Below, one piece after another: positions 59,549 to 61,114 of a DNA stretch of 64,000 nt (within the stretch, counting starts at the first letter, position 1; each line of letters begins with the position of its first letter). The stretch is from Alphaproteobacteria bacterium. Its GTDB lineage: Bacteria; Pseudomonadota; Alphaproteobacteria; Micavibrionales; UBA2020. A program made the translations under genes and the position numbers. The stretch spans positions 5,730 to 69,729 of the forward strand of contig JAIOQI010000056.1 of the NCBI GenBank assembly GCA_021413445.1. The letters are read 5' to 3'. The notes under the pieces are model-generated. The model saw only the letters and a program-made list of their open reading frames with translations. It did not search any database and was not told the DNA's origin.

Positions 59549-61114
59549 ATGTGGTGGCAGCCCGATCATTTCGCCAAAAAAATCCCCTATCTTCAGGAGC
59601 GGGCGCGGATTATTGCCGCGGTGCGCGATTTTTTCAATCGGCGCGGCTATCTGGAAGTGGATACCCCGGCCTTGCAGCACAGCCCCTGCATGGAGCCGCA
59701 TATTCAGGCTTTTCGCGTTGGGGGCAAGTACCTGCACACCAGCCCCGAATTCGCGATGAAAAAGCTGCTGGTGGCGGGGCTGCCGAAAATCTATCAGCTG
59801 GCGAAAGTGTTCCGCGATGAGCAGCCCTCGCGCCTGCACAGCCCCGAGTTCACCATGCTGGAATGGTATCAGGCGGGCATGGACTACAGGGCGATGATGC
59901 AGGAAACGGTGGAGCTGATCCGCGCTGTTGCCGCAGACAAGATCGTTTTCAATGGCAAGACCTGCGACCCGCATCAGCCGTGGGAAATCATCACTGTCGC
60001 CGAGGCTTTGAAGAAATATGCGGATGTTGATATTGAACAAAATTTGTGCGACCTGGCGCATATCCGCGCCGAAGCCGCGCGCATCGGCGTTTACGTGTCG
60101 CCGCATGACGACTGGGAAAACGCGCTGCTGAAAATCATGATGGACAAGGTGGAGCCGCATCTGGGTGCGCCTGTGCCGACGATCATCACTGACTATCCGG
60201 TGTCGATGGCGGCGCTGTCGCGCCCCAAGCCGGAAGATCCGCGCTTTGCCGAGCGGTTCGAGGTCTATATCTGCAGCATTGAGCTGGCCAACGCTTTCGG
60301 CGAACTGACGGACGCCAAGGTGCAGCGCGAGCGGTTCCTGCATGACATCGTCCTGCGTAAAAAGATATACGGTGACGACTATCCGGTGGATGAGGAGTTT
60401 TTAAAGGCGATCGAATTCGGCCTGCCGCCGTGCAGCGGCAATGCGCTGGGGATCGACCGGCTGGTGATGCTGCTGACCGGCGCTGGCAATATCGATCTGG
60501 TGCAGGCGGCGCCTGTGCAGCCGGACAATCGAAGCGGCTGGACGGCGCTGCATTACATGGCGGAAGCCGAGGCGCAAGGGGTCGATGTGGCCGCCCTGGT
60601 GGAAGAACTTCTGGCAGCGGGCGCCGACCCGCACCAGCCGGACCGGAATGGCGATACGGCTTTCAATATCGCTGCGCCGGCTTCTCCGGTGACAGGACGG
60701 CTGATGACGAAACACTGGCTGGCAGGCAAGGGCACGAAGGGGCTGAACGAGCGCTCCGGCTCCCATGGCACGACGCTGGCGCAATATATCGCCAAGTGGC
60801 TGCATGACGACGAGATCGAGGCAGCGGTTGCCAAGGGTGTGAGCGTTGACCTGCCCAATGACAGCGGCTGGACGCCGTTAATCGCCGCCGCCGCGATGGG
60901 GCGCGTGAAAGCGGTGGAGGTCTTCACCAAATCCGGCAGCCCGGCAGCGCGGACAACCGAGAGTTATACGGCCAATTATCACGGCTCCTCTGTTACCTAT
61001 CCCGCAGGGCTGGACGCGGCGGGCATTGCCGAGGCGCGTTTGACGCAGGACAAAGGCTTGTCAGCGGAGATGAAAAAGAATTTTCTGCAATGTATTAAAA
61101 TCTTGAGAGGCTAA
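59549..61114 (+). CDS. epmA: EF-P lysine ligase EpmA (PoxA/GenX)-like domain fused to C-terminal ankyrin repeats
   Basis: Residues 1 to ~325 are colinear with remembered E. coli EpmA (LEVDTP, SPEFAMKKLLVAG, PEFTMLEWY, ERFEVY..IELANAFGELTD, GNALGIDRLVML). Residues ~330-521 carry ankyrin repeats (GWTALHYMA...LLAAGADPHQPDRNGDTAFNIAA; DSGWTPLIAAAAMGRVKAVEVF). Confidence 0.75.
   Translation: MWWQPDHFAKKIPYLQERARIIAAVRDFFNRRGYLEVDTPALQHSPCMEPHIQAFRVGGKYLHTSPEFAMKKLLVAGLPKIYQLAKVFRDEQPSRLHSPEFTMLEWYQAGMDYRAMMQETVELIRAVAADKIVFNGKTCDPHQPWEIITVAEALKKYADVDIEQNLCDLAHIRAEAARIGVYVSPHDDWENALLKIMMDKVEPHLGAPVPTIITDYPVSMAALSRPKPEDPRFAERFEVYICSIELANAFGELTDAKVQRERFLHDIVLRKKIYGDDYPVDEEFLKAIEFGLPPCSGNALGIDRLVMLLTGAGNIDLVQAAPVQPDNRSGWTALHYMAEAEAQGVDVAALVEELLAAGADPHQPDRNGDTAFNIAAPASPVTGRLMTKHWLAGKGTKGLNERSGSHGTTLAQYIAKWLHDDEIEAAVAKGVSVDLPNDSGWTPLIAAAAMGRVKAVEVFTKSGSPAARTTESYTANYHGSSVTYPAGLDAAGIAEARLTQDKGLSAEMKKNFLQCIKILRG

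Follow-up and report, generated by a model that had tools for sequence, protein, structure and literature searches.

An EpmA-type EF-P beta-lysine ligase fused to a conserved ankyrin-repeat module in Micavibrio-like Alphaproteobacteria

EpmA, the EF-P--(R)-beta-lysine ligase, is regarded as a single-domain, single-substrate enzyme. In the window analysed here, that is, the whole stretch of 64,000 nucleotides from an uncultured Micavibrio-like alphaproteobacterium, one gene encodes an EpmA together with an ankyrin-repeat (ANK) domain. This raises the questions of whether such a fusion is genuine and of what an ankyrin domain may do for an enzyme of this kind. We will argue that the fusion is real and rare and that the gene is the organism's own epmA, and we tentatively propose that the ANK module serves the enzyme as a protein-binding subunit.

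The gene is a single uninterrupted open reading frame of 521 amino acids and a stop, in which EpmA/PoxA/GenX (residues 1-326) is followed by a six-residue linker and an ankyrin module of 192 residues (Table 1). An identical 521-residue product is called on the independent Logan assembly SRR15633504, and 23 further protein clusters, at 67-87% identity, carry the fusion in frame; EpmA and ANK share the reading frame in the loci L002-L005 and L021. The possibility of an artefact, through a frameshift or a misassembly, is rejected because of this identical protein on another assembly and the 23 in-frame orthologues. The architecture amounts to 24 protein clusters among 5.8 billion, all of them from alphaproteobacterial metagenome-assembled genomes (MAGs), such as JACQAA01, JAJZTA01, JAJZVA01 and JAJZFS01, and its members go under the plain names 'EpmA/GenX' or 'lysyl-tRNA synthetase' in the databases. 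Our literature search found no publication describing an EpmA-ANK fusion. No other fusion partner was found, nor an N-terminal ANK-EpmA fusion; the u2 family consists of eight clusters, every one of about 211 residues.

Table 1. Features of the fusion gene and its neighbours, in positions of the window.
Feature	Coordinates	Strand	Basis or remark
Complete EpmA::ANK fusion ORF	59549..61114	+	Profile matches; identical product on independent assembly
EpmA (EF-P--(R)-beta-lysine ligase) catalytic domain, residues 1-326	59549..60526	+	TIGR00462, E. coli alignment, Foldseek
Motif-2 loop VFRDEQPSRLHSPEF, residues 87-101: R89 (ATP-binding Arg), E91, Q92, H97	59807..59851	+	Alignment
Motif 3 CSGNALGIDRLVML, residues 295-308: A299, R304	60431..60472	+	Alignment
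Six-residue junction QPDNRS, residues 324-329	60518..60535	+	Comparison with solo relatives
Four ankyrin repeats, residues 330-465	60536..60943	+	Pfam, AF2 model, ANK/DARPin structural matches
Basic loop WLAGKGTKGLN (conserved) joining repeats 2 and 3, residues 390-400	60716..60748	+	Tail-family alignment; site of the 4-residue deletion common to fused tails
C-terminal cap, residues 466-521: beta-hairpin 473-484, helices 490-500 and 506-520	60944..61111	+	AF2
Ureidoglycolate lyase gene	59055..59546	+	Ends 2 nt before fusion ATG; same arrangement in L001
DMT_6/DUF486 membrane protein gene	61116..61460	+	Starts 1 nt past fusion stop; also behind epmA in relatives, whether ANK is present or not
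Agmatinase and deoxyhypusine-synthase-like (1,9-bis(guanidino)-5-aza-nonane synthase) genes, convergent	61986..63954	-	Conserved epmA neighbour in fusion clade

The first domain is readily assigned. The Pfam profile tRNA-synt_2 matches residues 15-322 (E 2.6e-53), and two NCBIfam models exceed their cutoffs over the full model length, namely TIGR00462 (EpmA; 363.9 bits vs a cutoff of 286.9) and NF006828 (298.5 vs 264); LysRS models score far under theirs. Aligned with E. coli EpmA over 309 residues, the domain is 41% identical, and E. coli residue 325 falls on residue 326; the alignment with the E. coli and Salmonella EpmA structures (3A5Y, 3A5Z and 3G1Z) runs from end to end, and Foldseek gives TM values of 0.86-0.90 relative to GenX (3A5Y/3A5Z). 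The fold is a class II aminoacyl-tRNA synthetase (aaRS) core without the anticodon-binding domain: the protein begins at the catalytic core, and the match spans LysRS from about residue 170 onwards and all of GenX.

Fifteen EpmA residues can be matched to E. coli, and they are as conserved as in 45 efp-linked EpmAs. Residues H51, S65, R89, H97, E105, Y107, S219, R236, E245, N248, F250, E252, G297, A299 and R304 correspond, in this order, to E. coli H52, S76, R100, H108, E116, Y118, S218, R235, E244, N247, F249, E251, G296, A298 and R303. The ATP, Mg and lysine ligands (R89, R304, E105, Y107, E245 and E252) are present and invariant in relatives, and so is A299, whose E. coli counterpart A298 is the gate for beta- over alpha-lysine. 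Judged by these residues, the EpmA domain is full-length and catalytically intact, and the fusion would presumably beta-lysylate EF-P. The class II core, the ATP, lysine and Mg ligands and the gate alanine are common to the window protein and EpmA/PoxA/GenX (YjeA) of E. coli and Salmonella, whereas the C-terminal extension of 195 residues is absent from every characterised EpmA.

Solo relatives end after ...AAPV, and from there the fusion runs on into the first ANK hairpin (GWTALHY). The Pfam profiles Ank, Ank_2 and Ank_4 (35.1, 44.2 and 50 bits) match at residues 330-365 and 400-463, above the gathering cutoffs, and the AlphaFold2 (AF2) model contains four ANK helix pairs, at 333-342/348-356, 371-375/380-391, 410-417/420-427 and 443-449/453-461. 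The structural matches of the tail are generic ANK/DARPin proteins, and because they reach a TM of about 0.5 only, it is best seen as a divergent member of the ANK group. Modelled alone, the tail has a pLDDT of 95.6 and a pTM of 0.90. For the whole protein these values are 93.5 and 0.83, while a pTM of only about 0.63 would be attainable if just the 326-residue domain were placed; the inter-domain orientation is therefore predicted with confidence, across a linker of just six residues, and the tail is predicted to be rigidly packed on the catalytic domain. A preliminary description, made from the letters of the DNA, had read the first ~325 residues as a full-length EpmA/PoxA continued by ankyrin repeats in the same ORF, and had called this combination undescribed, all of which agrees with the results above; the integrity of the active site, which it had left to be checked, is borne out by the catalytic residues and the gate alanine. 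The repeats themselves are also confirmed, but their number, given there as at least three, was set too low.

The tail belongs to a small, lineage-specific family of about 147 clusters which, outside the fusion, is free-standing (about 120 or more clusters). The free-standing homologues, of some 215-255 residues, are encoded as separate genes at another locus and are annotated only as 'ankyrin repeat domain-containing' or 'hypothetical'. Those of Micavibrio-like Alphaproteobacteria, for example TAL40070.1 and MDE1154041.1, are homologous over the whole tail (49-69% identity). The motifs GDTxFNIAA, GRLMTxHW, SGSHGSTLAQYxAKW and NxSGWTPLxAAAAMGR are shared between free-standing homologues and tail, and the C-terminal hairpin and cap are likewise conserved in the free-standing family; most of its members differ from the fused tail by an extra N-terminal capping repeat of ~35 residues and by a loop that is four residues longer. 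The corresponding deletion (HW----LxGK instead of HWLxxALxGKG) is common to all fused tails, and 24 of 24 form one clade within a 167-member family; the fusion has a single origin, in one event. A Rosetta-stone pattern is seen in two MAGs, GCA_004297545.1 and GCA_025934695.1, where a solo EpmA is accompanied by a tail homologue encoded on its own. Another protein, P0121, had looked like a free-standing copy 86% identical to the tail, and is actually a fusion truncated by a contig end.

Long motifs are invariant among the fused tails, and dN/dS is 0.12 for the 195 codons of the tail (range about 0.12-0.19) vs 0.11 for the enzyme; by this estimate purifying selection acts on the tail as strongly as on the enzyme. 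The tail is also absent, by clean deletion, from the close relatives L001, L028 and L030, the first of which shares its metagenome of origin with the truncated fusion L033, and in L009 the EpmA part has decayed with the ANK ORF intact.

As to the genomic context, the fusion occupies the same locus as the solo epmA of relatives, in the order ffh-rpsP-rimM, epmA, agmatinase-DHS-ADC, and by this synteny it is the epmA orthologue at the ancestral housekeeping locus, rather than a paralogue. The DHS-like neighbour was considered as an EF-P modifier, but this was rejected as the first choice, since its score exceeds the cutoff of the equivalog for 1,9-bis(guanidino)-5-aza-nonane synthase; it stands beside agmatinase and arginine decarboxylase, and polyamine synthesis is therefore indicated. 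PADLOC, applied to the low-GC ORF and its neighbours, gave no matches. Neither efp nor epmB nor epmC was detected in the 64-kb window, by Pfam annotation of essentially all large ORFs and by tblastn with EF-P, or in the lineage loci that were fetched. With E. coli EF-P as the tblastn query, efp was never seen within 6-10 kb of epmA in lineage loci, whereas in about 51 of 77 loci of other lineages it is the divergent neighbour of epmA. In some of these control loci (L046, L057, L087 and others), long 'EpmA' ORFs proved to be ORF-calling artefacts over the divergent efp.

A second association of ankyrin proteins with epmA is found among tail-less relatives. In the loci L034-L037 and L118, epmA is immediately preceded by one to eight small ANK genes, most of them overlapping by 4 bp. 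Of the 11 ANK ORFs in 190 kb of EpmA-selected lineage DNA, every one is either fused to epmA or within 2 kb of it, and none was found in 541 kb of DNA surrounding the 77 EpmAs of other lineages. The upstream proteins are diversifying, in up to eight copies, and many end in basic ...RFKL or ...KLKP. They were considered as homologues of the tail and rejected, as hhalign finds similarity at the level of the repeats only. The upstream genes may all go back to one ancestral neighbour, which might leave just two independent associations.

The fusion, together with the ANK-epmA adjacency in relatives, suggests an undescribed partner for the EF-P-modifying EpmA. The explanation that we favour, although we would put it somewhat short of an even chance, is that the organism's own EpmA carries a lineage-specific ANK module as a dedicated protein-binding subunit, fused in cis. 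The enzyme would activate (R)-beta-lysine with ATP and transfer it to the conserved lysine of EF-P. The module, separate in related genomes, would have been relocated once to the 3' end of epmA in one clade and then fused, with the C-terminus of EpmA taking the place of the N-terminal capping repeat and the module packing rigidly on the catalytic domain. EpmA recognises EF-P through its catalytic core only and has no anticodon-binding domain, the main source of binding energy in its aaRS relatives (PMC3950694). The ANK surface might recruit or position EF-P, compensating for that missing domain, or the beta-lysine supplier EpmB; alternatively, it might gate access to the active site. Physical binding of the module to EpmA in trans would also be expected. 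The observations from which this proposal starts are the integrity of the domains, the single origin, the purifying selection, the orthologous locus and the ANK-epmA linkage across the lineage. A precedent, by analogy, for an ANK partner of an adjacent enzyme is Bd3460 of Bdellovibrio, a small ANK protein that is encoded beside an enzyme and binds and inhibits it (PMC4686830). Where the preliminary description had left a choice between retargeting the transferase, perhaps to a host substrate, and tethering it to a partner, we thus favour the tether; retargeting and a host effector are disfavoured by the ancestral locus, the purifying selection and the lineage-wide ANK family.

The alternative that survives best, unlikely in our view but a serious contender, is that the fusion is functionally neutral: a lineage-specific ANK gene with a cellular role of its own landed downstream of epmA, the stop was lost, and the two halves work and are selected separately. 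Each half does occur alone, as in the tail-less loci and the decayed L009 described above, and the same losses are a counterpoint to the partner proposal, since they make the link dispensable. Moreover, the tail family is free-standing in most of its clusters at a locus unrelated to translation, with neighbours (PuuA/PuuB-like, DUF1028, ClpX, SufE and HisRS) that are housekeeping genes unconnected with EF-P, which is likewise a point against a dedicated partner. The absence of any other fusion partner or of an N-terminal fusion fits neutrality too, and read-through fusions arise easily where genes are so compactly packed; in this genome even unrelated genes often stand close together, as do ureidoglycolate lyase, epmA and DMT_6 with gaps of 2 and 1 nt, and ANK is a promiscuous domain, both of which also speak against the partner proposal. 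On the other hand, the fusion persists over the 67-87% range of protein identity with the tail at its low dN/dS, a short junction replaces the N-cap and rigidity is predicted (pTM 0.83), and a second, independent ANK-epmA adjacency exists in sister clades, with no ANK otherwise in about 180 kb of lineage DNA and in the 541 kb of control DNA.

Another possibility is that the module redirects beta-lysyl or lysyl transfer to a bacterial protein other than EF-P or, once secreted, to the EF-P or eIF5A of a prey or host; we regard this as improbable. One argument for it lies in the motif-2 loop, FRDEQPSRLH, where Q92 stands at the position of E. coli E103, the residue that pairs with the K31 position of EF-P. 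The E. coli variant E103A still makes the adenylate, and it neither aminoacylates EF-P nor complements a poxA deletion (PMC3950694). Glu occupies this position in 29% of the fusions vs 100% of the 45 efp-linked EpmAs, and in contrast to E. coli EpmA the substitution comes with a gene that is not linked to efp. Q92 may thus hint at an altered substrate recognition, but tail-less relatives have this loop variant too, which makes the hint ambiguous: the register is found in at least 15 tail-less EpmAs of the lineage, nine of them outside the fusion clade, for which reason loss of E103 was downgraded as proof of retargeting. The neighbouring E91, one position before Q92, is conserved, the other essential EF-P contacts (H97, R236 and E245, for E. 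coli H108, R235 and E244) and the beta-lysine gate are invariant, and this is the only epmA, vertically inherited at its ancestral locus under strong purifying selection, unlike typical effectors.

As to secretion of the protein, genes for type IVB coupling proteins (DotM/IcmP-like and DotL/TrbC-like) and for an autotransporter are present in the window, and the name Micavibrio, that of a predatory genus, is attached to several related MAGs. However, the DotM/DotL-like pair, both members of which score below their equivalog cutoffs, has a tRNA gene and a metal ATPase next to it and may be left over from a conjugative element, the fusion protein showed no recognisable secretion signal, and cultured M. 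aeruginosavorus is without type III and type IV secretion (PMC3189940). Of what would mark a secreted ANK effector there is thus the coupling-protein pair only, against an orthologous locus, a single origin and a dN/dS of about 0.12, and the host-effector reading has little support from a module that is conserved and lineage-wide among housekeeping genes rather than patchy.

A broader version, to which we give a similarly small weight, is that the EpmA of this lineage has been drawn into an ANK-based system, in which fused or co-transcribed ANK proteins would act as adaptors, substrates or gates that widen or switch beta-lysylation past the cell's own EF-P, in the extreme case to a translation factor of prey or host. 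Least probable of all is a cis-inhibitor or pseudo-substrate, in which the ANK part, in analogy to ANK immunity proteins, would occlude the active site until a signal or partner releases it, possibly through the GKG of a basic loop (WLxGKGxKGLN) that is conserved throughout the tail family and resembles the acceptor loop PGKGQ of EF-P; the predicted rigid arrangement, the inhibitor Bd3460 and the arrays of diversifying ANK genes upstream of epmA in relatives are in line with it, but GKG is a three-residue match that may be due to chance, and it is not obvious why a housekeeping ligase should need immunity.

It is instructive to compare the fusion with two other systems. LysX of Mycobacterium, an MprF-LysRS fusion that is among the NCBIfam matches (NF002821), also joins a LysRS-type domain to a second domain. 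There a genuine LysRS, which charges tRNA, is joined to a membrane lysyl-phosphatidylglycerol synthase, and this second domain directs where the activated lysine goes. Unlike that of LysX, the partner in the window protein is a soluble protein-interaction domain without a catalytic motif. The ANK genes upstream of epmA, on the other hand, are small and encoded with an enzyme, like Bd3460 of Bdellovibrio bacteriovorus, which binds its own enzymes directly (PMC4686830); those targets are periplasmic DD-endopeptidases and are unfused, and the likeness drawn here is one of gene arrangement.

The question can be approached by experiment, as one metagenome contains close tail-plus and tail-minus alleles and the halves are separate proteins in two MAGs, and it bears on the current engineering of EpmA as a beta-amino-acid ligase. 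If the partner proposal is true, the conserved, selected and rigid ANK domain would for the first time indicate that an accessory subunit can regulate or target EF-P beta-lysylation, and the same would hold for the ANK genes that the lineage keeps, separately, in the operon of epmA. A family of about 150 ANK protein clusters, now labelled hypothetical, would gain a function as well. Should the wider targeting system be the correct reading, it would make this enzyme the first protein ligase among aaRS paralogues whose targeting is programmable.

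The fused gene is a single open frame of 521 amino acids (coordinates of all features discussed are collected in the table below). The Pfam model tRNA-synt_2 matches residues 15-322 (E 2.6e-53), and Ank, Ank_2 and Ank_4 exceed their gathering scores over residues 330-365 and 400-463. In NCBIfam, the N-terminal part is EpmA (TIGR00462, 363.9 bits against a cutoff of 286.9; NF006828, 298.5 against 264), while all the LysRS models fall far below their own cutoffs, and this domain aligns over its whole length with the EpmA/GenX structures solved for E. coli and Salmonella. The preliminary description of an EpmA-like enzyme joined to ankyrin (ANK) repeats in one ORF is correct, with one adjustment: the tail has four repeats and a cap, where at least three repeats had been counted.

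A frameshift or assembly artefact can be ruled out at the assembly level. The same 521-aa product is found on an independent Logan assembly (SRR15633504), which supports the continuity of the ORF. A search of 5.8 billion proteins gave 23 further clusters with the two-domain architecture (67-87% identity, 473-548 aa), the remaining matches being EpmA-only, and the two parts also share one frame in the species-representative genomes of loci L003, L004, L005 and L021 and in the related locus L002. Databases name the fusions merely 'EF-P lysine aminoacylase GenX' or 'lysyl-tRNA synthetase class 2', and nothing relevant was found in the literature on EpmA, PoxA or EF-P together with ankyrin.

The E. 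coli residues were mapped onto the window protein at 41% identity over 309 aligned positions. The E. coli EpmA probe sequence used for this is consistent with the HMMER alignment to 3A5Z. The ATP- and lysine-binding residues, flagged for checking in the preliminary description, are all kept: the motif-2 and motif-3 arginines R89 and R304, the lysine/Mg ligands E105, Y107, E245, N248, F250 and E252, and also S65 and A299 are present, and none of them varies among 27 relatives. A299 corresponds to A298 of E. coli, which according to a 2026 preprint is the gate choosing (R)-beta-lysine over alpha-lysine.

The same catalytic positions are equally conserved in 45 efp-adjoining EpmAs of other lineages, with the E103 position as the sole exception. 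E. coli E103 contacts Lys31 of EF-P, and its alanine mutant forms the adenylate but neither aminoacylates EF-P nor complements a poxA deletion (PMC3950694). This position is Q92 in the window protein; a glutamate is found there in 100% of the efp-linked controls, in 84% of the solo (tail-less) EpmAs from the Micavibrio-like relatives of the window organism, hereafter the lineage, and in 29% of the fusions. The fusion clade has the loop FRDExPSRLH, with a conserved glutamate one position earlier, and other EpmAs have FRNAEGSxWH. Since the former register also occurs in 15 tail-less EpmAs of the lineage, of which nine lie outside the fusion clade, and since FRNAEG is retained in two of the fusions (clusters P0023 and P0024), the change at E103 is a hint, not proof, of altered EF-P recognition.

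We now turn to the ANK half. The C-terminus of E. coli EpmA aligns with window residue 326, and solo relatives end after ...AAPV; in the fusion, six residues (QPDNRS) lead directly into the first ANK hairpin, GWTALHY. The AlphaFold2 model of the whole protein, based on a 71-sequence alignment, has a mean pLDDT of 93.5 and a pTM of 0.83. Such a pTM would be out of reach if confident placement were confined to the 326-residue domain, which makes up 63% of the chain, and from this score alone we infer that a defined packing of the two domains is predicted. Modelled by itself (pLDDT 95.6, pTM 0.90), the tail comprises four pairs of helices, a beta-hairpin and two helices that form a cap. Structurally it resembles only generic ANK proteins and DARPins (TM ~0.5), and its sequence-profile matches are likewise generic. 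It is a divergent ANK solenoid with family-specific motifs. The tail profile retrieves a compact family of ~147 clusters; the members listed are free-standing proteins of 197-279 aa, and no other fusion partner occurs among them. A scan of 185,579 species genomes located the module in 25 loci, all in MAGs labelled alphaproteobacterial in their record titles, several of them as Micavibrio; NCBI places Micavibrio under Bdellovibrionales.

The closest pairs have a dN/dS of 0.12 in the tail (window vs L033; 195 codons, dS 0.65) and of 0.11 in the enzyme (window vs L001); more distant pairs give 0.15-0.19 and 0.08-0.17, respectively. In a neighbour-joining tree, the 24 fused tails form one clade of the 167-member family, together with only clusters P0121 and P0129, and this clade has a diagnostic 4-residue loop deletion in common, which indicates that the fusion arose in a single event. 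P0121 was considered as a free-standing tail and rejected, being a fusion cut off by a contig end. P0129, from locus L009, has an intact 197-aa ANK ORF directly downstream of an EpmA remnant of ~70 codons; it is the reciprocal of tail loss, with EpmA decayed and the fused-clade ANK kept. In the EpmA tree, also a neighbour-joining one, the solo members P0025, P0026/27 and P0028-30 are interspersed among the fusions, a pattern that implies repeated tail loss. The clearest case is L001, where the flanking DNA is >90% identical to the window and the neighbours are the same (ureidoglycolate lyase, EpmA, DMT_6), with a ~570-bp ANK segment cleanly missing. The tail-less L001 and the tail-bearing L033 come from one JGI metagenome.

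Whether or not the tail and DMT_6 are present, epmA lies clade-wide between the ffh-rpsP-rimM-trmD operon and a convergent agmatinase/DHS-like/arginine-decarboxylase operon. This shared locus marks the fusion as orthologous to the housekeeping epmA and not as an additional copy. On the upstream side, the window has a purine-catabolism cluster as a replacement. The convergent genes read as a set for polyamine (homospermidine-type) synthesis. DHS modifies eIF5A, the eukaryotic homologue of EF-P, which makes a DHS-like neighbour of epmA curious. In the fusion clade, three tandem paralogues without a Pfam match separate epmA from the ffh operon, filling the site held by ANK genes in sister clades, and small Lcl_C-domain proteins recur near epmA. 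A 357-aa ORF of the window, with no match in Pfam or PADLOC, sits in a low-GC island (33-41% against ~58% around it); it and an allantoicase gene form an insertion between the genes for OHCU decarboxylase and ureidoglycolate lyase, direct neighbours in the close relative L001.

Coordinates of the fusion gene and of other features in the window and in related (L-numbered) loci
Feature	Location	Strand	Remarks
EpmA::ANK fusion ORF, 521 aa	window 59549-61114	+	single open frame
DHS-like gene with agmatinase and arginine decarboxylase, convergent	window 61986-63954; L002:14370-16674; L028:11424-14725; L030:10977-14121	- (window)	best match 1,9-bis(guanidino)-5-aza-nonane synthase, 571 bits (cutoff 500)
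Lcl_C-domain proteins	window 61558-61980; L002:16928-17197; L028:511-1557	+ (window)	PF07603
357-aa ORF	window 56861-57934	+	
Allantoicase gene	window 57931-58992	-	
DotM/IcmP-like gene, then DotL/TrbC-like type IV coupling protein	window 39167-43279	+	NF033890 (DotM/IcmP-like)
tRNA gene adjoining Dot-like pair	window 38940-39011	-	
P-type heavy-metal ATPase adjoining Dot-like pair	window 43609-45795	-	
1029-aa ORF	window 26339-29428	+	no match in Pfam or NCBIfam
219-aa protein	window 16991-17650	-	eCIS_core/DUF4157-type domain, E 5e-5
Three paralogous ORFs, ~230-240 aa	window 9406-11676	-	unannotated
Tandem paralogues, ~340-380 aa	L002:6573-9832; L028:6612-9925; also L004, L005, L021		
EpmA remnant and ANK ORF	L009:9789-10600		
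Upstream ANK arrays, 1-8 genes, 173-237 aa	L118:1-5004; L034:8716-10004; L035:4683-6004; L036:4936-5601; L037:3485-6004		
Free-standing-tail neighbourhood	L023:4930-15203; also L007, L010, L013, L014, L018, L019, L026		opens with PuuA/PuuB-like genes
efp in control loci (examples)	L097:5367-5909; L041:5175-5723		divergent from epmA

The free-standing homologues of the tail have a conserved neighbourhood of their own, with no EpmA within 10 kb: ferredoxin, FAD oxidase, GlnA-like, with or without TPR-methyltransferase and DUF1028, then ANK, TPK-like, ClpX, SufE and HisRS. Its PuuA/PuuB-like members (GlnA-like and FAD-oxidase; polyamine catabolism) are a second loose link of the ANK module with polyamine genes. 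Two genomes have both halves on different contigs, as a solo EpmA and a free-standing tail homologue (GCA_004297545.1, L034 and L007; GCA_025934695.1, L035 and L010).

Outside the fusion clade, solo epmA genes have other small ANK genes upstream on the same strand: one in L036, two each in L034 and L035, two plus two divergent ones in L037, and eight consecutive ones in L118; L119 has a membrane protein and a GNAT at this site. The upstream ANK genes are mostly joined by 4-bp ATGA overlaps, the overlap with epmA included, and their products resemble the tail at the repeat level only. The one overlapping epmA in L035 belongs to a family of eight clusters, four of which are on contigs equal in length to ones with solo EpmAs. 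Nearly all of the upstream ANK proteins are without an N-terminal signal peptide and end in a basic motif (...GRFKL, ...KRFKL, ...SLKLKHP, ...PLRLKP, ...IRLKLAPKPS) that could serve for secretion or as an acceptor tail bearing Lys, or could in part reflect the ribosome-binding site of the following gene. The lineage DNA chosen solely by way of EpmA amounts to 190 kb and contains 11 ANK ORFs, every one of them fused to epmA or at most 2 kb upstream of it; the 541 kb that surround the 77 EpmAs from other lineages (L041-L117) contain none. In ~51 of these 77 control loci a divergent efp is immediately upstream of epmA; with E. coli EF-P as query, efp was never found within 6-10 kb of epmA in the lineage loci.

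The best-supported reading, which we favour tentatively, is that the ANK module is a dedicated EpmA binding subunit fused in cis. It is based on the age of the fusion, the selection on it, its short linker and its predicted rigidity, on the coexistence of the two halves as separate genes in sister genomes, and on a second kind of ANK-epmA linkage in the same lineage. There is also a precedent in Bd3460, a small ANK protein encoded beside an enzyme that it binds and controls (PMC4686830). Against the binding subunit count the loss of either half and the close packing of genes in the window genome, which extends to unrelated ones. The ANK genes upstream of epmA may moreover descend from one ancestral neighbour, and ANK is a promiscuous domain. 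For these reasons a neutral fusion remains a serious rival, although a rather less probable one.

A retargeted ligase or an effector role is unlikely. In its favour are the change at the E103 position, the loss of linkage to efp and, 16-20 kb upstream, the presence of DotM/IcmP-like and DotL/TrbC-like genes, but the fusion is at the orthologous locus, is under strong purifying selection with vertical inheritance, and keeps the other EF-P contacts. The DotM/IcmP-like protein matches NF033890 over its full length at 147.7 bits, under the cutoff of 230, and the pair, which adjoins a tRNA gene and a metal ATPase, belongs either to a type IVB secretion system or to the remains of an I-type conjugative element; cultured M. 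aeruginosavorus is without type III and IV secretion (PMC3189940). That the ANK would act as a cis-inhibitor or pseudo-substrate, suggested mainly by the conserved loop WLxGKGxKGLN, is more improbable still.

As a binding subunit, the ANK surface could engage EF-P, providing binding energy that EpmA lacks without an anticodon-binding domain; EpmB would be another candidate partner, and the active site of EpmA itself a candidate target. The window protein is a bona fide EpmA with an accessory domain, inside a previously unremarked, lineage-wide association of ANK genes with epmA.
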